The notes: a model not told the origin generated them from the sequence alone. A stretch of 64,000 nucleotides of DNA from Verrucomicrobiia bacterium (GCA_035495615.1 DATJFP010000088.1:41763-105762), one strand, 5' to 3'; positions 24,301-58,251 are shown, counted from the first letter of the stretch. Translations and numbers: made by a program.

Positions 24301-27300
24301 AGGTCTTTTTCGAGCAGGCCCGCCTCGCCCAGGATCGGAAAATACTGCGCGCCCTGGCTTTCGACGATGGCGAGCGCGGCTTCGAACGCGCGGCGGTCGC
24401 CGGCATTGCCGCGTTCGATCATGTCGAGCAGCTGAAGGGTTCTTCCGATTTCGGCCCCAAACGGATGCGGGAGCCTGCCGACACGGACGCGCTCGCGCAG
24501 CCACGCTTCCAGCGCGTTGTACTGGTTCTGCGCCTGGACGTTGTTGGGAATGAGCTGGCCGCCGCGGTCGATCGTAAAAATGGTCTGGGCATTGCCGGTC
24601 ATGAATTGCGGCACGTACAATTCGAAGAATTCGCGGCCGAAGACGTTTTCGTACATCTGAGCGAACCCGTCGTTGCTGATGTCGTACGGCGCCGGCCGTC
24701 CGTCGCGCGGCTGCTGGTCAGGAAGCTGGGCCCGGTAGAGGTCGAAGAAGTCCGCGTTGGTCTGGCGCAGGGCCGCGTCTCTTTCCGCCAGATTGCGGAT
24801 GTTTTTAGCGCGGCTGTATTCGGGGGTCAGGAACAGCATGTCCCCGAGTTTTTTGCTCATCTGGTTGTAAAGCGGCTCCTTGGTCTGGTCCACGCGCGCG
24901 GCGACAGGCTGCGGCGGCGGATACGGCGTGGCGACCCAGCCTTCGCTGAAATTGTACAGGCGCGGCTGGTCCTGACCGAGCTGTTCGAGCAGCGTCTTGA
25001 ACTGCTGTTCGTGCGGCTGCAGCGCGGTGGCTGTTGTGGGCGGCGGTGTCGCGCGCCCGCGGAACATGTGGAAGACCTGGCGCAGGCGCGTGATCTGCGA
25101 CTGGCCGGGTTCGCGGCCTATGGCTTCCAGGCCCGTGCGGTAATTCTGCTGAAGCTGCTGGTACGTCGTGGTGGTAAGCGTTTCGCGGCCCTGCGGCCCG
25201 AGGATCGTGAGATTCTGGCCCGACGTATTCCACACGATCACGGCGCGGTTTTCCGCGAGGCTGGAGATGAACGTGTCCCGATCGATGTAAGAATAAGCCG
25301 TCCTGGCAAGGTTGCCTGCGACGTTCAAAAGAAGGTTCGGCTTGAGCTGGTCTTTCAGCTGGTCCACGGCGGCCTTGAAGCCGATGGCCGCGTCGCGGGC
25401 GATCGCTTCTTCATCCTGCGGCTGGAAAAGCGTGAGGCCCAGGATGATTTCGGGCGAAGGCCGGATGTAAGGCACGTCGTTTCTCTGGAAGAGTTCGTAC
25501 TGGTTCGAGGCAATGATCTGCAGGGCCTTGTTGCGCGTCGGCGTGTCGTACAGCGAGTCGCGGGCGCCGCCGCGCACCCGCAGGGACGCGAGGCTGGCCA
25601 GCTTATAAGTATTAAGGAAGTCCAGGTCGTGGTTCGCGTACACCATCCGGGTCATGGCCACCCTGTAAGCTTCTTCGCGCAGGAAGTCGACGAGTGATTG
25701 TTCCGACTCGATGCGCGCGGCTTCCTGGGGCGCGCGGTAGTACACCGTCGAGGAACCCAGCTGCGCGGAATTGATGAACGTGGAATAACGCGTGACGCGC
25801 GGGGCGCCGTGCACGGCCAGGCTCCGGACCTGATAAGCCCGGTAGAACGTGTCCGCTCCCGACAGATGCCACCACGGCAGGAGCGCGGCGACCGGCGTTT
25901 CGGTGACTTCGGACATGATCACGTCGCGGATCCTCTGGGCCCTTTGCCCGGCGAGGTCTCTGACGGCTTCGCTCAGGATAAAGCCCATGTAGCTGGAGCG
26001 CGAAACCTTGGAAGCGAGGTTCAGGACTTCCCACTGCTGGTCGAGCTGGCCGCGCTCGTCCTTGTCGCTTTCCAGGTCACTCAGGAAGATCCGGCGGAAA
26101 GACTGGAAATCCGTTTCGTTCAGGCGGCGGAGAACCGTCCGCAGATTGCGGCCATCGCGCCCTTTGGCGGACGCGACCATCGACTGCAGGAGCAGGATGC
26201 GTCCCACGCGCTGGTTGCGCGTGATGTCCGTGGCATTGTCGGCGGAAAGGTTCATGCGGGCGAACAGGCCTTCGAATGTTTTCTTGAGCCAGTCGTATTC
26301 GTCGAAGCTGCGCGGATCGTTCCGGTGCAGCGCGGCCACTTTGTCCTGGTTGTCCGCTTCATGCCGCAGCAGGCGTGTACGCAATTGCCGGCTCTCGAGA
26401 CGGATGCGGTTGGCCGGAGCTCCGGTCACGCCGCTCGGAATCACGCCTAAAGCGCGGAGCAGGTTCTGTTCCGGGTTGCGGCCGTCTTCGTTGCGGAAGA
26501 CCGGGAAATTACGGATGGGGTCGATCGCGGTCGGATAGACCGACTTGTCATCGTCCAGGTAAAACTCCTTCAGGAACTGGCGGACGAGGTTGAGTTCGAT
26601 AAGATCCGCGGTCTGGGTGAAAGTATCGTCGGCCTCCACGGTGAAGCTCCGGCGGTTGTTCCCCTGCGTGATCCAGTGATTGACGCGTCCCGCCTCCGGC
26701 AGCGTGGGCATGTGGCTGACCTGGCGCACGGCCGTGGCTGTCACCGGCGTTTCCGGCGAGCGGTTGGCAAGGAATTGCTCGCGTGCCGTTTCCGGCTCAC
26801 GCCTCGGTTCCGGGCGCAAAAAGCCCAGGCCCGGCGGCGGCGGAAGAAGATCAAAACGCGGCATCAAAAGTTCCGGATCGATCTCCGGCAGCATGATGTC
26901 CGGCAGCGGAGGCGGCTCGATCGGGCGCGGACGAAGGAGTTCGTCGAGCGACGGATCGAATTCCAGCGGCGGCGCATTCGGGTCGATCGGGCCCGGGCGC
27001 AGCATGATGTCCGGATCAAAATCAAGGAGATCGGGTTCCACGTCTCCCGGCTGTCCCGGCGTGGGCGTTGCGGCCTGCTGGGCCGCGCGCTTGGCGCGCT
27101 CCTTATTCCAGATGTAGCCGCCCGCGATCACGGCCGCGACGCCCACGACGGCGCCCGCGATGATGATGTTGCGGCGGTTGACTCCCCGCTGGCGCTTGGC
27201 CGCGGCTTCGTCCGCCGCCTGCCTTTCCTTGGTCGATCGGGCCATGTACTCGAGCCCGTGCCGGATGGCTTCGATCTTGTCCGCGGCTTTGGGATGGATC

Positions 27301-30300
27301 GGAATTCCCTCGTCGCGGGCCGTTTCCTCGAACTCCTTGATGCCGGCCTCGATCGCGGTCTTCGCGTCCTCGATGGCCTGCAGGTGCTCGGGATAATCTT
27401 CCTCGTCGAGTTCCATGTCTTCATCTTCGATCAAGGCCTTGTGCTCGGCCAGAAGCTTGTTGTACGGCTTCACCGCTTTTTCCATCAGGATCTGTGTAAC
27501 CTCGCGCACCCGTCCTTTTTTAACTTCCGCTTCCTTTTGCTTGGCCACGCCGATGTTGCGGTGGATCTGCTCACGCGTCGTCCTGATCTCGTCGATGCGC
27601 GCGGTCAGAGGATGGTCCGGCTGCTCGAGGCGCGGCAGCTTCGCGAAGATCGTCTGCGACTCCTCGGCAAGCTCGAAAAGGGCGATCATGTTGTTGACCG
27701 CATCGGCCGCTTCGTTCACCGCGGCCCGCTCATGATCTTCGATGGGCTCCGCGGTTCCTTCCTTGTCGCCGAGCGCCCGCGCCAGGTTGTAATAAGTCTC
27801 GTAATGTTCGTAGAGGGTCGCGCGCTGGTCGGCCGCTTCCGCCGTATCCGCGAAAAGCTGCGGCATAAAACCCTGCTCGCGCAGCGCCTGCAGGTACATG
27901 GCTTCGAGGCCGGGGACCTGGGCTTCCATGGCGCGCAGATCCCGCACTTTGATGAACCACATGGCATAGAGTTCCGAAAAGAGGAAGTTCCCGCCCAGGC
28001 GGTGCGACGAAGTCTCGGCGCGCAATTCAGGGCGGGCAATGCCGCTGACCGCGCCGGGGTCGATGCTTTTGAGCTTTCCGTCGTCGTCCAGGATGAGATT
28101 GCGCCAGACGTCATCGATATCCACGATGCGTTTGTCGTTTCTCAGTTTGACGGTCGCGGCAAGAGCGCGGTGGCGGCGCACGTCCGCCTGGAAGACGGCC
28201 TGGAAAACCGCGGTCTTCTGAGCGGGTTCGATATCCCCGCTCGCGGCGACAGCCTGGAGGATGCGGGCCATGTCCGGGCCCTTGTAATCCTGTTCCACGG
28301 TAAGCTTGCCCGGTTCCTCGGAAACCTGCCGCGTCGGAACGAAGAATTCGCCCAGCACGGCCTGGTTGGCGAGACTGAGGCGCGCCTTCGTGTCGTCGAG
28401 GCTGACGGCCTCGTATTCTTTGGTCACTTTCGTCGGATGGGCTTCGTCGTCGGCGCTCAGCTTGGCGTGGAACCCGGACTTGATGCTGACCGGCAAGGTC
28501 GCTGCCACCTGACGGAGGATGGCCACGACTTCCGCGGGAAGCGGCGCGTTGTTGCCGCGCTCTTCCTTGATGGCATTGTTCAGCGCGCCTTCGATCTTAT
28601 TGAGGACGTTTTCCGCGTGCTCGAGTTTCGGCCGGTCGCCTTTCACGAGATTGGCGTAGGCAATGACGAGTTCGCGCAGGCGCCGGGCCGAGAGGTCGCG
28701 TCCCGTGCCTTCCCAGTTTGCGCGGTTTCCATCAAACCGTTCCCGCTGAGGCACGGACAAACGCGCGAGCATGCGTGCCTGCTGGCGGAGGATGTCGTCG
28801 ATGTCGAGGAAGGCCTGCAGGAATTCGTCCAGATAGGTGCGCAGCGCGGCTTCGTCTTTGGCCGCAATGACGGCCTGAACGTTGGCCAATTTGTTCCGTT
28901 CGCTCCAGACCGCGCCCGCGGCTTCCAGGCGCGACTGCAGGACATCCGGAAAGTTCTTCTTTTCGACTTCGATCTTTTTCTTTCCCGCGAGTTCCTTGAG
29001 CTCGGCCGCCATGTCGCCCAGGATTTTTTTATTTTCCGTCTTGTCCAGGTCCGCGAGGATGCCGTCGACGTCGGCCGGCGTCGCGGCCGAGGTGATGCGG
29101 TCGGTGAATTGGCGTACCAGCGCGGTGCGGGTGTCGTCCTCCTGCCGTTTCTGGTCTTCGAGAGCGCGCTGGCGGGCCTGGGCCTGCTGCACGAGGCGCT
29201 CCTCGACTTCCGCCGGAAGCTTGGCCGCCCGGATTTCTTTGAGCACGGCGGTGATGTTGTCGAGCGTCGCGCCTTCGATTTTCTTTTCCAGGTTTTTGGT
29301 CTTACGGTGGATGTTGATTTCTTCTTCCAGTTCCTGCTGGGCGCCTGTCGAAAGCGCGCTCTTGCGGACTTCGTCCAGGATGCCGTCCAGCACCGCGAGA
29401 TTGGCCACGGTCACGGCCGCGATGCGGCCGCGGAAGGACGCGATCAGCGCGTCCTCGGCCTGCAGTGTTTCGTCAGCGGCCGCGCTCAGCCCGATGCCGG
29501 TTTCTTCGGCCACTACGCCCGGAGGAGGCGTGCTCGGACGGCTCGGCGTCGGCGGAGTGACGCCTGCCGCGCGCGCGAGGTATTCATCGACGACGCTTTC
29601 CAGCGTGGCCTGCTTTCTCCAAACCCGCACAAGACCGTCCTTAATGAATTCTTTCCAGAGATCATGGCCCAGCTTGCGGCGCATGAAGTCCATGAGGACG
29701 GGCCCGTAATGATATTCCGCGGATTCCGGCGCACCCTCTTCGATTTTTCTCTTCAATTTCGTGGCGTGGAGGCTGCGCTTCTGCTCTGACAGCGCGGGGA
29801 AGGTCACGTCCAGCACGACATTGCCGGTCGCCGTTTCCCGCTGAAGGGTTTTGAGTGCCGCATAGACGAAATCGTTGGCCAGCGCTTCCGTGGCATAAAG
29901 CTGGTCCGGAGTGCGCGGGCCGGTCAGCGTGCGGTGCATTTCGTTGAAGATCGCATGGCCGACTTCCTCGATGTGGCGGACAAAGATGTCGGTCAAGCTC
30001 AGGTTCGCGATGTTGAGCGTGATGATGGTCTTCAGCGTCCCCTCTTCGCGGACCATGCGGGCACGGGCCTTCTTGTCTCCGTCATTGCTGGAACGGATGA
30101 CGATCCGGGTGATGGGAACCCGGGTCTTGGGCCCGTAATATTCGCTGCTGAAGCGCGTCAGAAAATCGTTGAGGGTGTAGAGCTTGCCCTTGTAGGGGTA
30201 GACTTTCGCGTACTTCACGATGAAGGCAATGAAATGCGCGCGGTATTTCGCGTTCCACGACGCGTCTTCGGGATTGTGCTTCTGGATCATCTCGACGATC

Positions 30301-33300
30301 TTCGCGCGCACTTCGTCCTGCTCGGCTTCGTCTTCGATGTTTTCCTGCAAGTACCGGTCGATATCGTCCTTGACCTTGTCGGGCGTCATCTTCAACACCT
30401 GGAAAAGATGGTCGGTGAGCGTCCTCACGTTCACTTTACCCCAATTGAGGCGGACGCGCGCCACATTGGCATCCGCGTCATGAATGGCCGTATCGAGATT
30501 GCCTTCGCGCAGCAGGGTCTCGGCCACGGGCTCGCTGAGAATAAGGCCCTTCTTGACCTGTCCCGATTTTCCGTTCGCCGTCAGCCGCAGCAGCTCCACC
30601 TGCATGGGCATCAAAGCGCCGGGCTTTTCCTCCGGGGCCGCCGGCAGCGTGTCTTCGGCTTCGCCCGGTTCCGGCAGGAGTTCTTCTTCGTTTTCCGTGA
30701 CCACGGCAGGCACGGCCACCGGCATTTCGGGGGTCACCGCCGCAACGGGCGCCACTTCGCCCGCTTCGCCGACGATGTCGGCCTGGGCCCGGGCCATGCG
30801 TTCCAGGCTTTCCTGCGTTTCCGTCGGGAGCCCGCTCGCGGCAACGGCGGCAAGAACGCCCGCGGCCGTGTCCGGAGTCATGTTCGTGATCTGCTGTTTG
30901 AGGTCCGCGATCGTGCTCGACATGGCCAGGGACATGCCGCCCTCGGCCTCGGACTTGGTGATGAATTCCCTTCTGGTTTCGTAAGGCCCTTCGAGTTCGC
31001 CCAGGTGCGACACGTAATCGGCGATCTGCCGGTTCACGGCCTCGCGGTCCGCCGCCTCGTACAAGCGCCCGAACTTTCTCTCGATCGCTTTCCGGCGCGC
31101 GTCGATTTGTTCGAGATGCTGCGTCAGGTCGAAATCATCGAGCGAAGCCATGGTCTGGATCTGGTCCAGCAGCGCCTGGCGGTCGAGCGCCTCGTCCAGC
31201 TCCGCGCGGAAGCCGCGGACCGTGCGCAGCACCAGTTTCTTGAAGCTCGCGTCTTTGGCGCGGCGGGCGGCAAGCGCGGCCGCGATCGGATCCTCTTCCG
31301 GCGGCGTCATGCGCAGTTCGGAGCGGCGCTGCTGGCTCTCACGCATTTCCGCCTTGAGGCCGGTAAGCTCTTCCTGCTTGGCCACATAAAGCGCGTCCAG
31401 ATGTTTGAAGCGGTTGTTGTCGGTGGCAAAGGCATTCAACCGTCCCTGGATCTGCTGGTAATGCTCGACGGTAAAGGCCTCGCCGTAATTTTCGCGCATG
31501 GAAGCGGCCGCGGTCCGGATGGACTCGAGATGCTCGGTGAAATCGAAATCGTCGATGTGCTCCATGGACGCGATCCGCGCTTCGAGGACTTCCGTATTCA
31601 AGAGTTCGTTGTCGATGCGTTCCAGGAAATAACCGACGGCGGCAGGGACCAGCGCCGCAATCTGCCGGTCGAGATCCTTGTCGAAGTCCGGCACCTGCAC
31701 CGACATGAGCGCGTCCGGAATCGACGTGTCCGTGCCTTCTTCATTAATATAGCGTTTGGCCGTGACGAGCGCTTCCAGGCGCAGCGGCACCAGGTGGCGC
31801 TGGGCGTCCGCGCCGATCTGCGGGCCGAATTCGTCGATGACAAGATTTTGAGCGGCGACAAATTGTTTGAGGCGGGCCACGGTCACGTCTTCTCCCGCGG
31901 CAAGGGGCTGTCCATAGAACCGGGCCATGATCGCCTTGGCCGGCGTGGGCTTTTTGCCGTGCGTGGCCTGGAACTGCGTCCGCAGCTGCACCAGCCCGTC
32001 CGACAATCTGCCGCGCGCCACGTCCAGGAGGCCGTTGACGCGGTTGGCTTCGATGAGCCGGTTCATGCCCGGCCCTTCGGCGAGAACTTTCCCCGCGGGA
32101 AGAACGGTTCCCACAAGCGTTTTTTGCGACGCCGCTTCTGCGATGGCGCGTTTCACGCGGCCGGCCGCCTCGCGCAAGACGCCGAGTTCCGAGAGGATTT
32201 CCTGCTGAAGGGCGCGGTAAGCTTCGTCGAGAGGTTTATAATTTTCGCGCACCGTAACGAGGCCGCTTTCGTCCTGGGCCGCGTAGGGGTGGTCCGCTGC
32301 GAGTCCTTCGAAGAACTTTTCGAGGACCCGGTCGACTTCCGTGGGATCGTCGGTTTTCGAGGGAAGGTCGTTGAGATTCCGGATCCGGCTCTGAATGCGG
32401 GTCAGCGCGCTATGCAGGTGGCCTTTTTTATCGGGCTGCGATTTGATCCGGGCCAGATTGCCGGCAAGCAGTTCTTCCATCGCCGCTTCCTGGTCCGGAT
32501 GCGTGCGCAGGAAATCCACGATTCCCTTGTTCCCGATAATGTCGGTGAGCCGCGACAGTTCCGCCTCGACGGTGCCGTGCATGTCGCCCTGGACCTGCGC
32601 CAGCATCCCGCTCACTTCAGGCCTGAGGGTTTTCGCGGTTCCGTCCAGCGAGGCCTGCAGCGCGATCTCGTCGAGCCTGGCCGGGGTCATGTCCTGGAGC
32701 GCCTCGTTGTCCATGTGCAGCGCGGTCAATTCCGCCACCACTTTTTTCGAGATCAGAACATGATAAAGGTCGCGGATGTCGGCCGGCATGTCGTCAAAGC
32801 CCTTGCCGCTGGTCGAGGCCCGCATGGCCGCGGCCTTCAGGGCGTCGCCGGTCGTCTCTTCCAGCTTTTTCCCGGTCGCGTCGCCCTGGATGTCTTTCAG
32901 GTACTGGCGGACATTGTCCGCGATGGCATTGCGTTTTTGGGGTGCGAGGACCGTGACCACCTGGGTTTTCAAGTCCGCGGGCACGTTCTTGAGCAGGAGG
33001 AGCATGCGCTCGACCGTGACCACGGCATTTTTCTTCTCGCTGATGTTTTTCATCCAGCTCTGGACTGCGGCGGTCGTGGCCTTGAAAATCGCCGCGGCTT
33101 CATCGGCTTTGAGGGTGAGCTCCTGGCGCAGCGCGTCCGCGCTCTTGATCTTGCCTTCGGCCGTCGGATAATCGCGTCCCGGCTGGGCCTTGGCTTGATC
33201 GAGAAGCGAGAGCACTTCCTGGATTTTGGCCAGCCGGATATCCTCTTCCGTCGGGGCCGCGGCCGATGGAGGCGCCACTTTTCCGGGCGTCTGCAGTCCC

Positions 33301-36300
33301 ACGAAAGAAACGTCATCGTCGTCGGCAAAAGGATTCGCGCGTTCCAGCCTCTTTTCCAACCCGTCTCCGGGGATCGAGGAGGCGTCCCGCGCGGCCTTGG
33401 CCAGCGCGTGCACGGTCTGATCCAAAGGCAGGGTGCGCGTCATCTCAACCAGTTCTTCCATGCCCGGGATCGGCATCACGCGGCCCACGACCGAGATCGT
33501 GGCCAGCGGCTTGCCGGGTTTGTTGGCGAGTGTCGTCGTCCGTATCGTGCTCAAACCGGCAGGCGTGCTCTTGTCGCCGCCGTCGGAATAAACCAGCGCC
33601 CGCGTTCCGGGAGGCACGTCCACCTGGGTGCGGTTGTTGCTGCCCAGCAGAAGAGCATCTCCGGAAAGGAATTCGTCGTGCTTGTGGCGGACGCCCAGAT
33701 AAAGCTCCAGGTTCTCCTGCGTTGTGAAGCGCGGAAGCGTCTCGCCGAAATCTTTGGCCTCCACCTTGCCGTCCGGGAGAATGAAAATGCCGGTGCTGTC
33801 GCCGTAATCGAGACCCAAGCCCGCGTATTTTTTCTTATCCGGATCGGCAATCTGCCGTGTTTCCGGGTATTCCCAGACAAGACGGATCGTGAGGGTGGTC
33901 ATGGCCCGCGAATGAATCTGCCGGGCCCGTTTGGCCTCGGACAAAGCTTCATTGGCCGCATCGACCGCGTCCTCGAGGACTTTCAAGGCGGCCTCGGGCG
34001 TTTGCGCCGCGAGCAGCTTTTCCCGGGTGGCTTCCTTCTCGATGGCGGCGATCACGATAAGCGCGGCCTGCCGCCCGTCCGGCTGCCCTCCGGCACCGTC
34101 CGCCACCGCGATGAGGCCCCGGTCCGGCAGGTTGAGAATGGCGTCTTCGTTGTTCTGGTCCGCCAGCGGTTTATTGATGCGGTACACTGCGGGAGCCGTG
34201 TAAGCCCAGGTCGTAAAACCCGTAGCCTTGCCTTCGATAGCTCTCTTTTTCGCGTCAAAATCATCTCTTACCCAAGGCCTGATCCGCTCCGGAAGCGCTT
34301 CGATCTGGCCTTCGACCGCCGCCAACTCCCCCGCGCTTGAATTCAGCGTCAGCGCGTCGACTGCCGCCCGCACCGGCATGTAACGGCGCCGGTCTTCCTG
34401 GATGCGCTGGGTAATCTGCAGCTTCTTGGCATCGGCCGCGCGGCCGATCTCGTCTTCGAAGCGCTGATAAACGCGCGGCGTGGTTTCTTCTTTGGCGCTC
34501 TCGACGTTTTCGTCGACGATGGCGATGCTGAGGATGTTGATGTCCGCCTTCTGCAAGTCCTGGATAAATTGCCGGAGCCGCTGCTCATCCCTCTTATCCT
34601 TGGCCGCGATCTTTTCTTTCTTGGCCCGTATGGCTTCCTGGACGTCGGCACGCTGCCGCAGCCGCGCATCCGTCAAAATCTTGGCCGCTTCCCCTTCGAC
34701 ATCGGCTTCCGCGACGGTTCTGGGGTCCAGGGCTGTGATCTTGCTAATGGCTTCGAACGCCGCCTCCTCATCCGCGGCAACCCGCGTCCGGATGGCCTCG
34801 TTCTTTTCGGCGAGCCGGGCCTGTTGCAGCCGGGCCGCGGCGTCCTGCGCGCCGTTCAGCCGGTTTTCCAGCGGTGTGACGTCCGAAAACGCATTGAGTG
34901 GGGTCAGCGCATCGACTTTGGGCGTAATGTCCGCTACGATCAGGCCCACGACTTCCCCGATTTCCCGCTTCAAAGCCGCCTGCAGTTCCGTGTCTTCCTT
35001 AATCTGGTCCGCGCGGCTGAGCAGCGCTTCGGCATCCGAAACCTGCGCCGCGGCAACATTCTTGCGGAGGTCTCCCAGGAGCCTGCGTACGTCCGCCGCG
35101 ATGTCGTTGTTCGAGCGCGAACGATCCCCGATCGACTGCCGAGCGGCTTCGAATTCTTCTTTGAGCGATTCTTTGAGATCTTCCCGGTCCGCGACACGCG
35201 CTTCCTGAGCCTGCACGTCCGATTCGTTTTTGACCCGGCGGAGCTGGATCTTGATATCCGCCATCAGGTCGCGGTCGAGGCTCTCGCGCTGCGTGATGGC
35301 CTCTTCCTTGGCTTCCACCTCGCGCAAAAGACGCGCCGCCCGTTCGCCCCGGGCGCCGGTCACGCGCGCCCGCAAGCCCTGCGCGGCGGTAAGGTCGCTG
35401 CGGTCAGTGAGCTGCGCGATCTGCGGTTCGATCGCATCCATGATCTTTTCCGCGGCCGCGTCGATCTCGCCTTTCACCTTGTCTCTCAGTACGGCGCCCG
35501 CGATCTGATCCGCCTGGTCGGCAAGGTCCTGCATGGTGCGGACATAAACGCCGTCGATCGCGGCCGTTTCCGTAATTCTCAGGCGCACCGCGGCGGCGGC
35601 CGTGTCATCGGCCTGGATGCGGCGCTGGATCGCGCCGCTGATGTCATTGGCTTTTTGCGCGAGGCGGTTGGCGCGCTCGGTCTTCGCATTGACGAAACGG
35701 CGGCGCTGCGCCTCGACTTCCTCTTCGGTGCTGAGTTCGCCGAGCCGGTCGAGAGACTCGTCGATGTGAGCGGCGACAAGCACCATTTTGCGTTCGATGA
35801 GCGCCTCGAGAGGGCCGCGCATTTTCGCGTTCTTCAAGCCGGCCAGTTTTTCCGTGACGGCTTCGACGTCCTGCAGCGCGGCCGTTTCCGTGTCAAGGCC
35901 CTGAAGCGCCCCGCGCACGTCCTGGTCGATCGCGCCGTCCTGCCGGATCCGTTCCTGGATCGCGGTTCTTTTCTGCGTGGCAAGATCAAACAGCTCGGGA
36001 ACCGATTCCGCTTCCTGCATCCGCGCTTCCTGCGCGGCAACGTCCTTTTCTTCGTTCAATTCCGTGAGCGCTTCCAGTTTTCCCCGGATGTCGGCCGCTA
36101 CAAGCCCGCGCGACTGCTCGATCGCGGCAACAGTCCTGTCGCGAATGGCCACGGTCACGATTCCCTGCGCCCGGGCTTTCGCGGTCTCAAACGGCTTCAC
36201 CGTTGCCGTGGCCGGCGTTTTGGGAAGGCCGCCGAGGATTTCCCGCGCGGTTTCTTCGTCGCGGCGTCCGCGGTCGCGGATGCGCGTCTTGATGTCGGCG

Positions 36301-39300
36301 GCGAAACCTCCGATGCGCTGACGCTGCCGTTCTTCGGGCAGCCGCGCCACGGCCGCATCGACGTCCGCTTCCGTGCTCTGTTCGTTGGCGGCGAGCGCGT
36401 TCATGGCCGCCTGCGCGTCCCGGATCAGTCTCGAATCTTCTTCTTCACGTTCCCGCAGGAAATCGCGGCGCGCCAAAGCCGCTTGCCGCAATCCTTCAAC
36501 TTCGGGCGATTTGGCGTTCTTCAGCCGGTCTTCCTGGGCGCGGATGTCGTTGACGTCTTCCGCGGCGGCGATTCGTTCCCGGATGTTCTGCACCACGGCA
36601 ACGCGCTTGGCCTCGATCTGCGGCCTCGCTCCTGTTTTCAAATCCTCATAAGGTACGGCTTCTGCCCGCTCGGCATAAGATTCGATGACTCCGAGCGGCA
36701 CGCCGTCTACGCCAAAGCCCGTCACGTCGCCGACCAGCCGTTCCATTGTTCGCTGGTAGTAATCGTAAATCTGGGCTTCCATCTGAGTCCGCTTGGCCTC
36801 GAGCCGCGGGAACACGAAAAGAAGGAGCGCGTGAAGGCTGGGGGTCGATTCGGTTTGAGCCAGGAGGTTCTTTTTCGCGCGCGCGTAGGCGGTTTGTTCC
36901 GCCGCGGCTCCGGCCTCCTGGTATTCTTTCAGCGCGCGGACGAATTCGTAGGAACTCTTCTGGTCCAGGGGCGGCATTTCCGTGGAAGTCAGCATGGCCG
37001 CGGCTTCGGGCACGATCTGGTCCGGCTTGTCGAGCTGTGCCGCCATGGCCGAGATGAGCCGCGATTCGTACTCGGCGAGGGCGGCTTCAGTCGTGCTGAG
37101 GCGGGCGCCGATGCGCGATTGAAGTTCCGAGACAAGAGGCGCGGGACTGTCGGCCGTTCCGGCAAGCGCCGCGGCTTCCTGGCCCAGGCCCTGGAGGCTC
37201 TGGTAATTTTCGTGCGGATCGCCGCGGGTCTGCTCGAGACGCTGGGCAATGTCGCGGAACTTGATCGTGTTATCGACCTGCGGCGTACGAACTTCGCCGG
37301 GCAGCACTTCGAAAAAGGCAATGACCGCCAGGATGGCGTCGAAATTCGCGGCCACATCCCCCATGTGGGGCTGCAGCGCGCCTTGCAGGAGGGTTTGTCC
37401 GCGCGCGGCAATGATGCCCGGAATCTGGGGCCTGTCCGCTTCGGAGGCCGCGCCGCGCTGCGCGTACGTGTCTACCAGGATCTGCGGGCTCATGGCCTGC
37501 GCCGTCGTGGTCTGGATCAGTTGAAACGCCCGGGCCAGCTTCAGGACGTTCAGGGCGTCGTTATTTTCAGGAGAAAATTTCGTGGTGTCCCACGTGATGG
37601 CGGCCAGACGCTCGAAGGAGTCCGCGCGGTTGATTTGCTTGGCCAGCCGGCCGAAGCGGGATTTTTCCGTGCCGCGCCATTTGATCACTCCCCAAATGGC
37701 TCCGGCTCCGGCCGCGAGACCCGCTGCGATTAAAGCGGGCCCGGTAAGATTGGGCGCGTTGACCGTGACGCCTCCTGCTTGTTCCGCCAAATACTGATAA
37801 AGTTCGTAAACGCCGTAAACCGCCACGCCGGCGCCGGTGAGAACTCCCAGGCCGAGCAGAATGCGGTTTCTCCAGACGCGGGCCGTCTCTTCCCGTCTTT
37901 CCAGTTCGGTCTTTCTCGCGCGCGCGCCGTCCTGCTCCGCCGCGGGCAGATCATTGATCACAGCTTCGGTAATATCGGCCGACCGCCGGGCTGCTGCGAC
38001 GGCTGCGCGCGCATCCTCGATCTTCTTGAGAGCGTCGCGCTTTTCCCGGGCCTGGTCCCGCTCGCCGTCGTTTTCGAGATCCGCGAGCACCGCGTCGGTA
38101 ATCTGCGCCGACTGCGTGGCCGTGGCGACCGTACTTCTCGCGGCTGCAAGGCGCGCCGCCTGGATCGCCGTCCTCTTGCCTTCCGCGACTCCGGCGAGCC
38201 TCGCCGCTTCCGTCGTCTGAGCTCCTTCCAGACGCGCCGTCTGCGCGGCCACCTCTTCGATCGTGCTGGCGTCGGTCAATGCCGTCAACTTGCCTTCGAT
38301 GTCCGCCACGATTTGCGTGACTTTGCCGCGGATTTCATCTTCCACCGCCCCGCGAGCGGCCCCGTCTTTGATGCCGGCCGCCAGAGGCAGAAGAGCTTCG
38401 GCGTCGCTTATTTTCGCGGCAGCGGCATCGATCTGTCCGAGCTGTGTCCGGATATCGCGCGCTTTATCCTCGTCACCCCGCAGCCGGTCGCGAATCTGTT
38501 CCACGGCGGCATCCGCCTGGTCTTTCACCTGGATGCGGAGACGTTCCTCCAGACCGTTCACAATGGCGGCGAGCTGATCTTCCGTGGCCGTTTCCAAATC
38601 CAGGGCTCCGATCGCGCGCTTGGCCTCAGCGACCGCGCGGCCGTCCGCTTCGATTCTCGCCTCGATGGCTGCGCGTTTGGCTTCCGCCAATTCCCGCAGC
38701 CGCGCTGCTTCGGGAGTCTTGGCATCTTCGAGGCGTGCGGTCTGCGTCACCACCGATTCGGGAGTGTTGAGTTCGGTGAGGGCATTCAATTTGCTTTCGA
38801 TGTCGGCGACGATCTGCCCGACTTTGCCGTTGATCTGGCTTTCGACACTGCCGCGAAGCGTCGCGTTCTGGATCTGCGCGGCGCGCGTCAGCAGGGCTTC
38901 CGCGTTTTCGATCGTGGCGCTTTCAGGCTGAACCTGCCCGAGATCCGAAAGGATGGCGCCGGCTTTTTCGTTGTCGCTGCGGCCGCGCTCGCGGATCGCG
39001 GCAATCTTGGCATCCGCTTCGTCGCGCACATGATCACGCAGGCGGGCCGGCAGCCCGCTGCGAATGGCTTCAACGGCGTCTTCCGCCGCCGTGTTCACAT
39101 CAATGTCGTCGATCTGGCGCTTGGCTTCGACTATAGCCCGGGCATCGGCCCCGAGCCTGTCGCTGATCGCCTGTTTTTTCTGTCCCGCCAGATCGCGCAG
39201 GCGTCCGGCATCGGCAGCGGCGGCGCCTTCGAGCCGCGCAGCCTGGGCATCCGGGTCAGCCAGCGCATTCAGTTCCGTCATGGCGTTCAACTTGCCTTCG

Positions 39301-42300
39301 ATGTCCGCGACAATCGCGGTAACGCGGGCGTTGATTTCGCCCTCGATCGCGCTCCTCAAGGTTTCTCCCTTGATCTGTTTCGCCCGCGGCAACAAGGCTT
39401 CGGCGGCGTGCACGTTGGCATCGCCCGGAAGGAGGGCCGCAAGATCGCCGCGGATCGCTACTGCTTTTTCATCGTCGCTTCTCAAACGTTCGCGGATGGC
39501 CGAGAGCGCCGCCGCGACATCTTCCGCAATCTGGTCACGCACGCGTTCGGGCACGCGCGTCTCGATGGCTTGGACCTGGGCAGGCGTCGCGGTTTCGGGA
39601 TCGAGCTGGCCGAGGTCCTGTTTGGCCGCCGTGACGGCTTCGCGGTCCGCGGCGATGCGCCTCGTGATGGCGTCCATCTTGCCGCGCGCCAGATCGCGAA
39701 GGCCTGCGGCTTCCGAGGTAAGCGCGTCTTCGAGGCGCTGGACCTGCGTGTCGACTTCGGCCGCCGCGCTCAACTCGGTCAAGGCTTCCAGTTTTCCGCG
39801 GATGTTTTGGACGATCCCGCCCACTTTCGCGTTGATTTCATCCCGCACGGTTTCTCTCAGAGCGGGGTTCTTGATGTCCGCGGTCTCCGTCAAAAGGGCT
39901 TCGGCTTCTTTGACAGCGGCCGTTTCAACCGGCAGCAGTCCAAGCCGCTCACGAATGCTTTGCGCTTTTTGTCCGTCGGTTTCGATGCGCTGGCGGATCG
40001 CAAGCAGGGCCGCCTGCGCTTCGGTGCTCACCTGGCCGCGCAGACGTTCAGCAAGACCGTTCACGACGGCTTCGACATCGGTGGCCGCGGCTTCATTTAT
40101 ATTAAGGCTCGTGATCGCCTGCTTCGCCTGGCTTACGGCGAGCTCGTCCGCCCGGATCCTTCTCTCGATGGCGGCCGATTTTTCTTCCGCAAGCGTGCGC
40201 AGCCGGCCCGCTTCGGACGTGGCCGCGTCTTCCAGCCTCGGCGTAATCGCCGTCACGCTGGCGGGCTCGTTCTGGTCCGTCACGGCATTCAATTTCCCTT
40301 CGATGTCCGCAACGATCGCTTTGACTTTCTGATTGATCTCGCCTTCGACCGCGGAGCGCAGCGTTCCGTCTTTGATCTGCCCGGCGCGGGTCAGCAGCGC
40401 TTCCGCGTCTTTGATCGCCGCCGTATTGGCAATCGCTCCGAGGTCACCCCGGATGGCCGCCGCCTTTTCGGTATCGCCCTGCGTGCGTTCGCGAATCGTG
40501 GCGGCCGCGGCATCCGCTTCGGCCTTGACCTGATCACGCACCCGTTCGGGCACGCGATTGCGAAGGGCTTCTACGTCGTCCACCGCGGCCGTGTCCAGAT
40601 TGAGCGCCGCGATCGCCTGCTTGGCTTCGCGCACGGCGCGTTCGTCCGCGTCGATCCGGTTTTGAATGGCCCTGGATTTCTGCTCCGCCAACTCCCGCAG
40701 CCGGGCCGCTTCCGGCGTCACCGCGCCTTCAAGCCGCGACGTCTGGGCCGTCACTTCTTGGGCCGTGCTGAGTTCCGTCAAGGGCGTCAGCTTCGTTTCG
40801 ATGTCCGCGGCGATCTGGCCGGTCTTGGCATTGATCTCGCCTTCCACGGCCGGACGCAGCACCGCATCTTTGATCTGCGCCGCGCGGGGAAGCAGCGCTT
40901 CCGAATCCGTGAGCTTGGCCGTCGCGGCGGCGATACCCTGCAGGTCCGAACGAATCGCCGCGGCTTTTTCTCCGTCGCCCCGCGTGCGGTCGCGGATCGT
41001 GGCAATGGCCGCGTCCGCTTCGGTCTTCACCTGCTCGCGCACCCGCTGGGGCACCCCATTGCGGAGGGCTTCCACTTCGTCCACCGTGGCCGTGTCCAGA
41101 TTGAGCGCCGCGATCGCCTGCCTGGCGCCGCTCACTGCGAGCGTGTCGGATTCGCCGCGGCCGGAGATGGCCTGAGACTTTTGGCCTGCCAGCTCCCGCA
41201 GCCGGGCCGCTTCCGGCGTCACCGCGCCTTCGAGCCGCGCCGTCTGGGCCGTCACCTGGTCGGCCGTGCTTTCGTCCGTCAAGGCGTTCAACTTTCCTTC
41301 GATGTCCGCGACGATCCGCGTCACGACCGCGTTGATTTCGCCTTCCACGGTCGTCCGCGCGGTCTGGTCCTGAATCTTTGCGGCGCGCTCGAGCAGCGCT
41401 TCCGCGTCTTTGATGTTCGCGGCCGCCGGCACGATCCGTCCGAGATCCGCGGCAAGGGGCCCGCGAAGCGCCGTGTCTTCTTCGCCCCGCTTTAAGTCAT
41501 CCCGCCGCCGTTGAGCCCCTGCCAAAATCACGTCGTAGGCGCTTCTTTCATCCCCGGCGAACGTCACCCCCGTCACAAGCCGTTCCGCTTCATCAAGTTT
41601 CTGCTGCGCCTCGGCCGCTGTGTCCGCAGCCTGGGCTGCGGCAAGCAATCCGACCAGCGAAACAACATTGCCTCGGCGCGTTACCTGCTCTTGTTCGGCT
41701 CGCTTCAAGTCGCGCTGCTTTACGCGCAGGGCTTCGAGGGCTTCGGTATAACGGGCTTCTTCCTGGCCGGCAAATGTGACCTGGCTGCGCAGTGCCGTGA
41801 CGGTCGCGATCGTGGCTTCCGCCTGCGTCGACGAGGTCGGCTCCACGGCCAAAAGAGCCATCAGGTGCCGGACTTTTCCCGAACGTTCGGCTTCCGCATC
41901 TTCGTCCGTCTTGAGACGCTGCGCGGCTTCGCGTGCAAGCCCGAGCGCATCGGTGTACTGCCGCTGTTCATTCCCCTGAAATTGGACGCGGCCTGCAAGG
42001 TCTTCGGCTTCTCGGATCATTTCCTCGGCTTCGGATGCCGTTGCGGCGCGCTGCGCGCCTGTCAGCAGGCTCTGGATGCGGCGCACCGAGGCTTCGCGGT
42101 CCGCGACAAGTGCCCGATGCTCGGCGATGAGTCCGGCCAGCGCGCGCGTGCGAGTGCTTTCAGCGGCGCCTTCCAGCCTTTTTTCCTGGAGGTCGAGGAC
42201 GCCTGTGTCATAAGTGCTCGTGACCTGGGTCCGGATATTGGATTCGATGGCAAGCGCGGTTTGTTCGACTTCCCCTTCGAGCGTCGTGCGCAGGCCTTGA

Positions 42301-45300
42301 TTGCGGACGCGCGCCACGTCCTTCAGCACGGCTTCCGCTTCCGCCAGCGTGGCCGTCGCCGCTTTCACATTCAAATTCGCGAGCGCGTCACGTACGGTCC
42401 TGGCCAGGGTTTCTTCCTGCGCCACGGCTTCCTGGATGGCTTTCTTTTTCTGTCCCGCCAGCGCCTGGAGCCACGGCTGGGCCGCGGGATTGAAACGCCT
42501 TTCCTGCGCCTCGACCGCGCTGACGGCCGCGGTTTCGTCCATCGCGGTCAGCGTTTCCTGGATGTTGTCAATGAGGCTGCCGATCACGCGGCCGACTTCG
42601 CCCTGCCACGCCTGACGCACGCCTTTGTTCTGGATCTGATTGACCCGCTGATAAAGCATTTCCGCGTCGCTGATCTGGGCAGTCGTAAGGTCGAGGCCCT
42701 CGATCGCTTCCATCACGCCTACGGCAATCTCATCGTCTTTGCGGATCCTGTCGCGGATGGCCTGGCGCACGGTCTCGGCTTCTGCGGCAATGCGCGTCTG
42801 GAGAGGTTCCCGCAAAGTCGCGGCCACGGCGTTCACGTCTTCTTCCTTCGCGGTCTTCGGATCGATCTTGCTCAGTTTCCCCAGAACGTCCTGCACGCTC
42901 GCCGCGTCTTCAGTTTCCTGCAGGGCCATGAGATCCAGCACTTCCACGACCTGTTTGTCCCCGCGCACGGCGTCTTGGAGCCGCAGCGGAAGCGCAGTGA
43001 TCGCGGCTTCCACGTCCTGGGAGGCCGCTTGCCCGATCACCATGCTCGTGATGGCGGCGATCGTCTGCGTTTTCATCGCTTCGTCTTTCTGCTCACGGGC
43101 CGTGATCGCGCGGGTCATCTCCTCCACCTTGCTGCTCAGCCTTTTGAGGACGTCTTCCGGAAGGCGGAGGGCCATATCTTCGGGAAGACGGAACATGACG
43201 GCGTTGACCTGAGGCACGGTAGAGGTCTCGACCGGAAGAGCGCCGATCTCGGCAACCAATCCGTCGATAAAGGCGGAGTCGCTCGCCGCCTGGAAACGAT
43301 CATGGACCGCCTTGACGCCGGCCGTGAGATCCGTGCGCAGATTTCCGCGGTAGCCGCGGGTCCGTTCGCTCTGAGCGGCAAGCTCGTCTTCATTTTTGAC
43401 TCCGGCCAGACGCTCGACGACGTTCTGCGCCACCTTCTCCTGCTGCGCGGCCGCGGCCTGTTCGATCTGGTCCCGGTAAGCGCGGCCAGGCGCAAATCCC
43501 AGCAGCCGCAGCCCCTGTTGGACAAAAGCCGAGACGTCGCGCACCGACACCTCGCGCGCGTCGATTTCCCCGATTTGCCGGACAAGGTCTTCCACGGCAC
43601 TATCCATTCTCTGCCGGCTCCGCTGTTCGCGGCTTTCGGCAAGGTCACGCTGTCTTTTCTGTTCACGGGCCTGACGCGCCTGGTCGACCGGCACGGCTTC
43701 GAGTTGTTCGACCGCGGTTTCGCGGGCCTGTTCTTCCGGCTGTGGCACGGGCTTGGGCTGTTCTTCGGCCACTTCGGCCGCGGGAACTGACTGGACCACG
43801 AGCGAATACAGATGCGCAATGTCTTTGTATTCCTGGAGGACGAGCTTGATGACTTCCGTACGCGTCTGCACGGCCATCTCGAAAAGCGCCTGCTTTCTGC
43901 CTTGCGCGGTTTCATCCGCATCGGTCGTCGACTGCTGTTTCAGCGCCTCGAAAAGCGCGCGGATGAGCGCCGGGAGCTGGGCGAGTTTTTCCTGGACGGC
44001 CAGAAGCTGGCGCGCGGTCTGTTCGCTGGACAATTCTTCTTCGCTGGCAAGGCGTAAGGTTTCCAGGGTGTCGCGAAGGCTGTGGAGTCCCTGCACGAAG
44101 TTCGCGCCGTCCTGATAGCCTTCGCTCAGCTTCGAATAAATATCGCGGTAGGCCACACCGATGGCCTGGACCGCGTTGTCTTGGGCCGCCCGCAATTTCT
44201 CATCCAGGCTTCCGAGCGCTTCATCGAGCTGCTGGATGCGTTCGGTGAAACGCACGCGCAGCGCCTCGGCCCGGGTCTGGATTTCAGTGCCTTCATAATA
44301 AGATTCCCGTGACAAGGCAGCCAGCTGCTCCATGACCACGTCCCGAAGCCGCCACAGGGTGTACTGTTCGTTTTCGATGACCCCGGCCGCTTCACGCACC
44401 AGCGGGAATTGCCCCGCGGGCTGCTGCAGCTGGGCCTCAAGCTCTGATATATAGGAAGCGGTGTGCCCGAGCTCCTGGTCCGTTTCGCGTTCGATTGTGT
44501 TCAAACGGCGCGTCAGCACGCCCATGTTATATTCCGCGATTTGCCGGATCTTCTCGTCCGCGGCGGCGCGGACGCGGTCTTTGAGATTCGCGGGTAGGAG
44601 ATCGACCAGCCGGTTGACTTCCGCGGGCGTGCCGACCGGAACCGAGACTTTCGTCTCGATGGCGGCCGTGACTTTTTGCACCTGCAGGTCGTCGAGCTTG
44701 CCCAGGGAAGCGGCGCCGCGCGCAATAACCGCGGCAAGCGCCTGCCTTCTGGATTTCAAAAATTCAATTTCGCTTCGCACGCCGGGATCCACGGCGTCCG
44801 GATTTTTTCCGAAGGCATCTACCTTCGCGTCGAACTGCGCGAGCGTCCTATCCGCTTCCTCCCGGATTTTCCCGATCTGGAGCCGGATCGTGTCGAAGAT
44901 GCTAGTCGTTTCTTCGGTGAGGTTCGGGACGTTCATGAGGCTTTCGGCGACTTCGAGGCTGCGGATCAGCCTCGTCTCTTCCGTTTCGTAGAAAGCGCGG
45001 GCTGCGGTGACTTCGCCCTTCAAGGCCAAAACGCGTTTTTCCGTGAGTTGGATTTTACGCGTCAGTTCCCGGATCCCGGCCTGGGCGTCTTCGGTCACCC
45101 TCTTCAGGGAATCGTCGAGCTCGCGGAGAAGGTCTTCGGGTTCTTCCGTCGTCCTCAATTCCGCGCGCAGGCCGACAGCAAGCTGGGGCATCTGGCGGGC
45201 ATTCCCATTCAAGCTTGCGAGAAGCTGGCTGCGTCCTTCGCTTCCGAGACCCGCAAAATAGGCATCGGGCCGGCCGAGCAGTTCGCCGATCAGGGCCAGG

Positions 45301-48300
45301 ATTTTTCGGACCGCTCCCGCCGACGGAGTCTGCTTGAGTCCCGCCAGCGTCTGTCCCGCTTCCGCGATCGCTTTCTTGGCATCGACCGCCGCGGGCTGCT
45401 GCACGGGTTGGCGGGCCCGCTCGAGCGCACGCGCGATGCCGGGAAGATCGCGGATTTCAGGAGGCAGGGCTTCGAGAGTCTTGGCAATTTCGGCGACTGG
45501 TTCCGGGACCATCTCCGGATCGAGCTCGGGCGTCAGCGAAACATCGAGGGCATGCTGGATATTATTGTAGAGCAGATTCCCTTCTGTCCCCGTGGCCTTG
45601 TCTTCGTAAGAGAGCTTCTTAATAATGTAGTCGCGCAGGTCCGCCATTGCGAGAGCGATCGTGCCGGCCTGAATCTGGCGCGCGGCAAACAGAATCGCGT
45701 GATGGTCATACGTAATGCCCGTCGTATCCGAAACCTTGGGCATGTTCGCGGCGCGGTCTTCTTTCCAAAGGTCCTCATTGCTCATGGCCGCTTCCGGGAA
45801 GGCCTTGTTATGCTGGCGCAGCGATGCTTCCTCAAGCAAATCCAGGACGGCGTTCCGCTGCTGGCCGCCGAGCGCGTTCCAAGCCGCTTCGTCCGACCGG
45901 CGGATCAATTCGATCTGGTCGCGCAGCGCCTGCTGCAACTGCCCGGCCGCCTCTTCCCGCTGGATTTGGGAAGTCCACGCCTGCGGCAATTTATCGAGGA
46001 TCCAACGCTGTACCTGGACCGAATAATCCGTGACTTTCTTTTCCGTGGCCGTGCGCGGAACGGTGAGGCTCATCGGGTCTCCCGGCTGGACTTGCAGCCG
46101 GTCCAGATGCATCAGGAAATGAATGAGCGCGTTCTTTTCCTGCTTCGTCCACGACGTAAGCTCGGAGTTCCACCGCTGAAGCCCCATGAACCGGTTTCTC
46201 GAGAGATCGTAGCGGCGCTTTTCGATTTCCGGACGCGGGCGCTCCACAGCGCCTTCCTGGAACCGCAATTCGCCTTTCAACGCGGCCTGGCCGAGGTCGG
46301 TAACGACGACGCTGATCTGGCCGGGCTGCACCTTGCCGAGCGCTTCCGTGACGGCCGGATCCCTGACCAAGTGCGCATCCACGGGCCCGGAATAATAGTT
46401 GCTGTCGCCGAGCTCCAGCCGGTTCAAACGGTCGGGCTGTTTGAAAAGCCCGCGGGCTTCCGAATCCTGGCTGCGAAGCACCTTCGCAAAAAGGCGCAGC
46501 GCCTGTGTCTTGTCTTCGCCCGTCTGCCACAAAAACTGGTTCGGACCTTTCCGCTCCAGCACGCCGCCGAAACGGTTGACGATCGCGAGGAGACCCTGCT
46601 GGTATTCCGCAGGAATTTCCGCGGCGATTTTCTTACGCATTTCCTCGAGCGCCTGCTCAGGAGTATTGCTTTCGAAGATGCTTTCGACGATCGTCAGGGT
46701 CATGAGGAAAAAGGCGTGCGCGTATTCAGGATCGCGGGCGATGAAATCGGCGGCTTCCTGGCGGAGACCCAGGCTCGCCGCATTCAGAAATTCGCGCGCC
46801 TTGGGCGATTTTTCGATGACCATGTGCCAGGCCGCGAGCTGGAAGCGCGGGTCGCTCAGGCTTTGCTGCTGGGGCGGGAGGAAAGTCTCCACCAGCCGCG
46901 TTTCGAGCGGCATCGGCTTCTGGCTGAGGGCGTCCACGTAAAGCTGCGTTTCCTTGGTGTCGTCGATCTGGCCGTGGATCCGCGGCGCGATCACAAGGAA
47001 AGAATAATCGTTTTCCTTGAGATAGGCCTCGATGCCGGGCGTATGGAAACCACCGGTAATGATCGCCATGATCTGCTGCTTCCCGGATTCCATTTCCCCG
47101 ACCGCTCTCTCGATCAGGATCTTGTCGCGTTTGAGAGCTGCGGAATAATAACGCTCCACGCGGCCAAGATCCTGATCAAGGATCTCCAAAAGGGACGGCA
47201 ATCCATTGGAGAACTGATGTTGCTTTAAGAGCGGTACGAGGAAATTACGGAATGTCTCTGCCTTGAATTCGTCGCGGTATGTGTAGAAAAAGTCTGCGTC
47301 CTGCTTGGTCAGGGTGAAATTGAACATCTTCTGGTAAATCTCGAAAATGCGGAACAGCCGGTCCAGCTGCACTTCCTCTTCGTTGCGGAACAGCTTGTTC
47401 TTGATGTCCCGCTCGAGCGCCTCGATCTCGCTGAAGATCGCGACGTCGATCGAATCGTAGAGCCTCATATATTTAAGGTAGCGCAGGACCTCGTCGTACT
47501 TCTGGGCCAGCTCTTCCTGCCCGGCCCCCTGCGTCGACTGCATGTTCTGGATTTCGACCTGGAGATAGCCGTAATAGTCCGCGCGCTTCATCTTCTTCAT
47601 GCGGAACTGGACCGTGTTGGTCAGAAACTCGGAGAGTTTTTCACGCGTGAGGACGTTTTTCAGGTCGTTGATCAGGTCTTCGATGCTTTTTTCGGCTTTG
47701 TCGAAATCGATTTCTTTTTCGAGATCGATGAGCGAGAGAAGCGAGTGCATGCCCGGATAATCGTAAAGGGCGATGTTTTCTTTGCGGGCCGTTTCCACGA
47801 GATGGCGGACGTAACTCACGAGTTCGTTGCCGCCGGACTGGAAGGCCTGCCGGTAATGCAGCATGTCCCGCAGATCATCGGAGAAAACGAACCGGGAAAC
47901 ATCGTCCATCAGCTTTCCGAGGTCCGCCAGAACTTTTTCGTCTCGGTCTTTGTATTGCAGGGCGTCGAGATAAGCGCGCCTGTTTTCTTCATAGATCTGG
48001 CGGTCTTCCACGCCGTACAGGTTCAGTTCCGGCCGGTCGACGATCGCGAGGTATTCGGGCCCCGTCAAACGGGCTTCTTTCAAAAAGTAATCCGCGACAT
48101 TTTTGCGGGCTTCTTTGTTCGGAAAAAACGAAAAGAGTTCGGTGAAGAGTTCGCCCTCGGCGCCTTCCAGGTTGATCAGTTTAAGACCGTAATTTTTGGC
48201 GAAATAATCAAGGATGCCCGCGATGTTGCGCTGGGCCTCTTCATTTGCATGAGCGTCCTGGATGTGGATGACGATGCGGTCGCGGGAACCCTGGAAGTTT

Positions 48301-49228: not shown

Positions 49229-49239
49229 GATTCCTCCTG

Positions 49240-50802: not shown

Positions 50803-50877
50803 GACGACACACCGGTCTTCGGGAATAAACCAGATTCAGGAAGGAAATGTTGGGGCGCGGGACGTAGGAAGCGAGGA

Positions 50878-51243: not shown

Positions 51244-51326
51244 TCATCCTCAATGCCTTCGCCGGGAGAGGGCCCGATGTCGGCCCCTAAAATATCGGCC
51301 TCTCTCCAGGGAAAATTAAGCGAAGA

Positions 51327-51402: not shown

Positions 51403-51411
51403 ATTGAATTT

Positions 51412-52257: not shown

Positions 52258-52267
52258 GCCGCTGCTT

Positions 52268-58242: not shown

Positions 58243-58251
58243 AGCGGAGCT

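Follow-up and report, generated by a model that had tools for sequence, protein, structure and literature searches.

The question raised by this locus is whether a regular 501-nt repetition inside a giant open reading frame (ORF) represents recently copied DNA or a protein module of long standing, and what a row of such modules might build. The locus lies in a 64-kb stretch assigned to a Verrucomicrobiia bacterium (GCA_035495615.1, DATJFP010000088.1:41763-105762); the whole stretch is referred to as the window, and all coordinates count from its first letter. The original prediction, made from the DNA alone, described seven near-identical tandem units. With a probability of about 0.6, the repetition is read here as a tandem array of old helical domains in a giant membrane protein of the Omnitrophota, most likely building a long rod or scaffold.

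Age and coding strand of the 501-nt array

Periodicity was measured by autocorrelation over positions 38001-41600, where identity at a lag of 501 nt was 0.528 against 0.311 ± 0.019 over all multiple-of-3 lags (an excess of about 11 standard deviations); the next-best lags were 1002, 1500 and 1503. A repeat search returned families of four to six copies with spacings of 501, 498 and 1002 nt and 60-78% identity to the reference copy. The period is 501 nt, once 498 nt, and the array spans ~37.9 to 41.4 kb. The sequence anchor from which the repetition had been recognised was found at 38298, 38799, 39300, 39801, 40302, 40800 and 41301; its 19-nt consensus (TTCGATGTCCGCGACGATC) was matched with at most two mismatches at six of these seven positions, with 0.05 matches expected by chance. 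The spacing of ~501 bp in multiples of three was upheld by the autocorrelation, the repeat search and the in-frame unit lengths alike. Tandem Repeats Finder, run on 30-50 kb, reported nothing: the program accepts periods up to 500 only, and the copies have diverged too far for it (under ~70% alike). Units were delimited by alignment and by a profile hidden Markov model (HMM) built from the six full units, as follows:

3..48530, minus strand: giant ORF, at least 16,176 aa from the ATG at 48530, without a stop down to the window start
40911..41411, minus strand: unit U1 (aa 2379-2545, 167 aa; 248 bits with the unit HMM)
40413..40910, minus strand: unit U2 (aa 2546-2711, 166 aa; one-codon deletion near the C-terminal loop)
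39912..40412, minus strand: unit U3 (aa 2712-2878; unit alignment and unit HMM)
39411..39911, minus strand: unit U4 (aa 2879-3045; most diverged full unit, its anchor missed at up to three mismatches)
38910..39410, minus strand: unit U5 (aa 3046-3212; unit alignment and unit HMM)
38409..38909, minus strand: unit U6 (aa 3213-3379; unit alignment and unit HMM)
37944..38408, minus strand: unit U7, decayed (aa 3380-3534; first ~85-100 aa well kept, remainder barely recognisable)

In the phase beginning "xDAEALL...", units U1 to U6 measure 167, 166, 167, 167, 167 and 167 aa, all in frame, and the single 498-nt spacing is due to the codon deleted from U2. Domain E-values ranged from 1e-74 to 1e-78 for six copies and reached 1e-28 for the seventh, which scored 86 bits against ~245 for full units (111 bits after iteration of the model). 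The copies thus lie head to tail and in frame with similarity far above chance, as in any tandem array of domain repeats. The predicted count of seven held for six full units; the seventh is only half preserved.

The units are not near-identical, as had been claimed. Pairwise identity among the six full units was 54-73% at the DNA level and 45-69% at the protein level; for U7 the corresponding values against the other units were 48-53% and 36-44%, with good conservation in its first half only. U1 and U2 form the closest pair, U4 and U7 are the most diverged, and neighbours are not systematically the most similar. The best 100-nt window between any two units had 88 matches, and the longest exact run common to two units was 39 nt. 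The pair of segments that had been put forward with two mismatches (40691-40755 and 41192-41256) differs at four of 65 nt and was drawn from U1 and U2.

Recent tandem duplication or ongoing gene conversion, leaving near-identical units of unstable copy number and possibly an assembly artefact, is a very improbable explanation of these data, and the class of recently amplified or homogenised tandem repeats was rejected. Synonymous divergence (dS) between the six full units was 0.64-2.1, and the ratio of nonsynonymous to synonymous divergence (dN/dS) was 0.22-0.50 (Nei-Gojobori). At residues identical between two units the same codon was used in 45-68% of cases, where the codon usage of the gene alone predicts 47%; 12 of the 15 pairs of full units had fractions of 0.45-0.58, near this baseline, so most unit pairs are saturated at synonymous sites. 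A nucleotide-level signal was left only in U1-U2 (0.68), U1-U3 (0.66) and U3-U6 (0.65). What speaks for recent copying is concentrated in U1: with U2 it shares two patches of ~60-75 nt at ~96% identity, the 39-nt exact run and the identical-codon fraction of 0.68, above baseline. Clustering of identical codons, as conversion tracts would leave it, gave p = 0.07 for U1/U2 and 0.015-0.06 for three other U1 pairs (permutation test, uncorrected), and none of these values was significant after correction for 15 tests.

The related warning that the array might be collapsed or expanded in the assembly was not supported either, since only 15 30-mers are duplicated in the whole window, all of them between U1 and U2, and the longest exact run is 39 nt; there is nothing to collapse. 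An assembler k-mer above ~40, or reads of at least 100 nt, can place every unit uniquely. The array is a stable sequence, neither recently amplified nor assembly-prone, and each copy is under purifying selection.

The frame in which the units lie was established by a six-frame scan, which gave a single stop-free minus-strand frame from 48545 to 3 (16,181 codons, first ATG at 48530). As this frame is still open at the window start, the gene extends past the window. The giant ORF of the original prediction was borne out and is placed on the minus strand, with which the Ala/Glu/Arg-rich reading of the unit agrees. Strand and frame are fixed by homology of the N-terminal part:

46446..48530, minus strand: conserved head domain (~600-700 aa) with the motifs IHIQDAHANEEAQ and GGFHTPG

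The head had 42 protein matches (E down to 2e-288), all organism-named ones from Omnitrophota/Omnitrophica. In GTDB, 341 Omnitrophota species genomes carry a relative of it, nearly always at the start of a very long ORF; of 82 ORFs that contain the head, 69 ran off the fetched locus, often >3,400 aa downstream. The protein belongs to the Omnitrophota giant-gene family that carries this head. Invariant motifs of the head follow the pattern QDAH...E...GGFHTxG, and its His-containing motifs allow a guess that it may be a metal-dependent enzyme; no Pfam match was obtained for it and no PDB sequence match below E = 0.07.

It is scarcely credible that the true genes are instead plus-strand ORFs of 1,000-1,900 aa (for example 37779-41495), or that this is repeat DNA without a coding function. 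The region is indeed tiled by long plus-strand ORFs; however, they all share one antisense-aligned frame that is broken every ~1,200 codons, against 16,181 stop-free codons on the minus strand. The head with its 42 homologues, a dN/dS <0.5 and confident predicted folds all belong to the minus-frame translation. For annotation, the array sequence can be trusted, and one minus-strand giant ORF should be called in place of a string of 1,000-1,900-aa antisense ORFs.

Fourteen plus-strand open frames, each 400-1,940 codons long, follow one another over 3-48653, all in the frame whose codons align antisense with those of the giant gene. As shadow ORFs of a gene rich in G and C at third codon positions (GC3), they could mislead gene callers.

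The helical module and its family

The array (1,156 aa) consists of 21% Ala and 31% charged residues (202 Asp and Glu, 158 Lys and Arg), and contains no aromatic residue and no Cys, with two His and two Met. AlphaFold2 models were all-alpha for one unit (predicted local distance difference test, pLDDT, 94.1; predicted template modelling score, pTM, 0.74; alignment of 14 rows) and for two consecutive units (pLDDT 92.9, pTM 0.64; three rows of non-overlapping unit pairs). The earlier description of a charged, Ala/Glu/Arg-rich module of helical appearance agrees well with this composition and with these models. Within each unit the predicted helices alternate: short (~10 aa), long (24-28), short (10), long (36), short (9) and long (37-39). 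As modelled, the unit is made of three asymmetric hairpins of a short and a long helix, ~47-60 aa each. Ala, Leu or Ile occupies 27 of the 43 invariant columns, and a 3-4 spacing of such residues was read by eye in the long helices of the consensus.

The three sub-repeats of the unit align with a common pattern, and an hhalign comparison of the unit profile with itself gave an offset of ~53 aa (E = 1.6e-3); this weakly suggests an ancestral hairpin of ~55 aa behind the three-fold unit.

When the unit HMM was iterated to convergence, 18 module copies were found within the giant protein, in three blocks:

41886..43484, minus strand: block A, about five old copies, partial or of variable length (aa 1688-2220; HMM E 4e-16 to 6e-34)
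~37944..41411, minus strand: block B, the 501-nt array of seven units (aa ~2379-3534)
34227..36683, minus strand: block C, six old copies (aa 3955-4773; HMM E 3e-23 to 2e-43)

Copies in block B are 43-71% identical to each other, those in block A 10-39% identical to other copies and those in block C 20-41% identical to block B, so that no copy of block A or C exceeds the range of 10-41% identity to any copy. Of this larger and older 18-copy family, the 501-nt array is the block that arose last and is best preserved.

Relatives of the unit were sought outside this protein. None was found in a word-indexed set of 5.8 billion proteins, in GTDB genome contigs or JGI metagenome contigs, or in six-frame translations of 87 loci with a homologous head, and HMMER, run in full over 1.84 billion cluster representatives, gave none that was credible; two HMMER matches (E = 3e-6 and 6e-5) were to beta-rich repeat proteins and were discarded as spurious. 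No Pfam family matched the unit at threshold, with HEAT, TPR, spectrin and FIVAR/GA all without signal. Neither the unit profile against PDB sequences (nothing below E = 0.07) nor a fold search of the PDB with Foldseek (nothing below E = 0.13) gave a counterpart.

Giant genes are a known hallmark of the Omnitrophota (bioRxiv 10.1101/2023.11.21.568195); among their long proteins with Pfam matches, 65% repeat a domain at least twice, and nucleotide tandems have generally dissolved where protein repeats persist, 80% of the long proteins being sequence singletons (bioRxiv 10.64898/2026.06.07.730766). The array is a textbook instance of this pattern, in which protein repeats are kept and nucleotide tandems are lost. 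The present ORF resembles the tandem-repeat scaffold class of this phylum (Nielsen & Lui 2026; West-Roberts et al. 2023) in its length (>10,000 aa), signal-like N-terminus and transmembrane helices as well as in its repeats, recognisable in the protein and decayed as nucleotide tandems. It differs in that members of that class are dominated by a Pfam family (TSP3, NHL, WD, HEAT or TPR), whereas the present unit matches none; the protein is largely without Pfam annotation, like the 137 "dark-matter" proteins of the Omnitrophota giant-protein studies.

A comparison with two named types covered the 16,181 aa that the window encodes; the gene's C-terminal part lies outside. The Archaeovorin type carries a SecA DEAD-like domain, HEAT/TPR, glycosyl transferases/hydrolases, methyltransferases and NUDIX, and the Dockerin type many dockerin/EF-hand and thrombospondin type 3 repeats (West-Roberts 2023, bioRxiv 10.1101/2023.11.21.568195); in this portion Pfam searches found no SecA_DEAD, HEAT or glycosyltransferases for the former and no PF00404 or PF18884 for the latter.

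The general picture of the Omnitrophota is unchanged, repeats of this kind having already been reported as the rule. What is new here is the module alone, a helical orphan that belongs to no Pfam family and has no structural homologue; with it, one foldable component is added to the dark matter of these proteins, most of which lacks annotation. A construct of two to four units would be small, free of Cys and predicted with high confidence, and thus an easy entry to the first biophysics of Omnitrophota giant proteins.

A putative rod and its position at the membrane

Two hydrophobic elements frame the repeat-bearing part of the protein:

48441..48497, minus strand: N-terminal hydrophobic helix (aa 17-35 of the open frame; Kyte-Doolittle 2.04)
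37683..37862, minus strand: hydrophobic hairpin (aa 3562-3580 and 3603-3621), ~30 aa after the array

The N-terminal helix reads MIDWQTRRAKPWLR-TVALLVALIFIV-HDVVWA/DGG, with four Arg/Lys on the N-terminal side, and resembles a signal peptide or signal anchor. The outer flanks of the hairpin are rich in Lys/Arg (eight and seven), and its connecting loop has none. Between aa 36 and 3561 no convincing additional transmembrane helix was found (best Kyte-Doolittle value 1.36, at aa 950-968). Further hydrophobic helices were indicated by the hydropathy scan at aa 7127 and 8946/8977 and in a dense cluster at aa 11,359-12,755 (~10,280-14,470), where about 20 strongly hydrophobic 19-residue segments resemble a polytopic membrane protein.

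The proposed arrangement is as follows. The all-alpha module of 166-167 aa is present in six full copies and one that is half decayed, at aa ~2379-3534 of a membrane-associated Omnitrophota protein of giant size (at least 16,176 aa). The copies stem from old tandem duplications and have diverged since. The long helices carry heptad-like Ile, Leu, Val and Ala positions and are packed into elongated helical bundles in the models; purifying selection keeps the hydrophobic core and some Arg, Glu, Asp and Lys, while surface positions drift. Most likely the modules would stack end to end into a stiff, long and strongly charged rod or scaffold of helices, in the stretch that separates the conserved head from the membrane hairpin, and would serve to space or present the protein's remaining parts with respect to the membrane.

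To judge from the pTM of two units, the composition and the analogy with Embp, a rod or spacer is the most likely role. Embp and Ebh carry F-repeats of 170 aa and FG-repeats of 125 aa, in which pairs of three-helix bundles ~70 Å long form rods of hundreds of nanometres (PMC7587433, citing PDB 6GV8, 6GV5 and 2DGJ). They are likewise giant bacterial proteins with tandem all-helical repeats (tens, of 125-170 aa), low identity between repeats and a conserved helix pattern, and the Embp F-repeat also has six helices, beginning with a short and then a longer one. On the other hand, they come from another phylum and envelope type; neither FIVAR (PF07554) nor GA (PF01468) was detected in the unit, Embp/Ebh chains were absent from its PDB sequence matches, and the present protein has no YSIRK signal and no DUF1542. 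With an Embp-like geometry, as a rough estimate, seven units might extend over ~50 nm and 18 copies over >100 nm.

The same likeness suggests that the modules could be multivalent binding elements, by which the cell would cling to a matrix or to the surface of a partner or prey, in the Velcro-like manner of Embp/Ebh on fibronectin. We consider this unlikely. The format of the F-repeat (~170 aa, six helices, many tandem copies, giant surface protein; PMC7587433) and the prey adhesion proposed for Omnitrophota giant proteins (bioRxiv 10.1101/2023.11.21.568195) would suit it, and the signal-like N-terminal helix suggests export. Yet the conserved columns are mostly of core type (Ala, Leu, Ile), with no obvious polar patch beyond scattered Arg, Glu, Asp and Lys; a site that binds glycans or proteins would not usually be without any aromatic residue, as the array is, Pfam gave no signal for FIVAR/GA or another adhesin domain, and the hairpin flanks point to a cytoplasmic location.

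Other helical repeats offer parallels too, and those of spectrin are, with Embp/Ebh, the nearest working analogues. Like the spectrin repeat (PF00435), a three-helix bundle of ~106 aa that forms elastic rods, the array has tandem helical bundles and heptad-patterned long helices; the present unit differs in its 167 aa and six helices (three short, three long), and it had no Pfam match to PF00435. A conserved Trp is typical of spectrin repeats, and the array has neither Trp nor any other aromatic residue. With alpha-solenoids and designed helical repeats (HEAT, TPR, DHR) the unit shares repeated helix-turn-helix hairpins of ~45-60 aa, although its hairpins are strongly asymmetric (~10- and 24-39-residue helices) and joined in threes into a higher-order unit; aligned lengths in this comparison were only 74-96 residues, and no HEAT or TPR signal was obtained with Pfam.

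A different use of the helices would be that of exchangeable apolipoproteins, in which closed bundles open onto lipid, so that the array would coat or remodel a membrane instead of forming a free rod. The Pfam family Apolipoprotein A1/A4/E (PF01442) matched two of 14 copies below threshold, best U2 (E = 2.2e-6), and ApoE3 was a marginal PDB sequence match (E = 0.12); the helices are rich in Ala, Glu, Arg and Leu and interrupted by Pro/Gly, and the membrane hairpin begins ~30 aa after the array. But the 13.7 bits of U2 are far from the gathering threshold of 90, and such scores are expected from composition alone; AlphaFold2, moreover, gave confident closed bundles. This explanation appears quite improbable.

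Several points nevertheless weigh against a rod in a membrane protein as set out above. The role of rod or spacer is throughout one that we infer, and the sub-threshold apolipoprotein matches leave room for a lipid-binding, amphipathic-helix reading. The AlphaFold2 alignments contained paralogues only (3 and 14 rows), and idealised Ala-rich helical sequences tend to score high in AlphaFold2 regardless. An orthologous array was absent from every collection searched. Finally, the two membrane elements appear to conflict as to the side on which the array lies: the positive charges on the N side of the N-terminal helix place it outside the cytoplasm, and the Lys/Arg-rich hairpin flanks, by the positive-inside rule, place it in the cytoplasm. 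Topology calls have been described as unreliable for Omnitrophota giant proteins (West-Roberts et al., bioRxiv 10.1101/2023.11.21.568195).

A more far-reaching version of the rod is offered tentatively, as something that could well prove wrong: an undescribed, lineage-restricted helical domain, amplified 18-fold within an insertion of ~7,900 aa, may form a charged rod of ~50-125 nm that sets the distance from the membrane to the functional parts, an independently evolved bacterial "spectrin". The insertion is considered below.

Relatives of the giant gene and its neighbourhood

The closest relatives of the head are at the loci L083 (79% identity), L084 (69%), L001 (67%) and L002 (64%); in all four, the sequence ends before the position of the array or has nothing in common with the window protein beyond aa ~700. 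L001 (JGI 3300056623, Ga0558116_01763, 10001-18886), whose contig ends 8.9 kb into the region, shares the upstream gene order with the window (SPOR, PilZ, YajQ, PilZ, patatin-cNMP, AMP-binding, hydrolase, histidine kinase, response regulator). Its head is followed by several shorter called genes (691, 1160 and 571 aa, and others), none of which has anything in common with the window protein after aa ~700.

Besides the head, the window protein shares only aa ~8601-9300 (~20,600-22,740) with relatives; the 8-10 loci concerned are up to 46% identical there and have this module ~1,000-1,600 aa from the start. Because of this shift, ~7,900 aa of the present protein, with the three repeat blocks among them, look like an insertion specific to this lineage. 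Among 38 related giants of which 3,000 aa or more were available, few have sizeable internal repeats after the head. One of these loci, L019 (JAUYMS010000050.1; head 53% identical), carries an unrelated helical repeat of ~41 aa at ORF aa ~1250-2778, with the unit "RVDGLMADAxRYGMTxERPTTKxxADxLAxxIExAR" nested in a longer repeat of ~485-732 aa; helical repeats have therefore expanded independently behind the same head in different lineages. The giant proteins of the Omnitrophota seem to have lengthened through local amplification, long ago, of helical modules inserted between conserved parts.

A Pfam scan of the 16,181 aa gave a marginal PP2C_2 phosphatase match (24.2 bits, cut-off 24) at aa 4796-4886 (~33,890-34,160), directly after block C, and a 37-aa P-loop piece corresponding to the start of Cytidylate_kin at aa 16,089-16,125 (~170-280). 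Apart from a weak ARMT1-like match at aa ~14,262-14,372, the scan gave no further signals.

Over most of its length the giant gene (1-48530) has 61-67% GC, compared with 50-55% in its neighbours (48800-64000), and its GC3 climbs from 0.73 to 0.86 along the gene (neighbours 0.60-0.74); the conserved head has an overall GC content like that of the neighbours.

The two Omnitrophota giant-gene preprints (West-Roberts et al. 2023; Nielsen & Lui 2026) do not mention cysteine. Not one of the 16,181 codons of the giant ORF encodes cysteine, whereas the 16 flanking genes have 0.63% Cys. Homologous ORF pieces from 82 related loci contain 0.064% Cys (136 in 211,407 aa), with none in 27 of the 82, so that Cys depletion is family-wide and about ten-fold.

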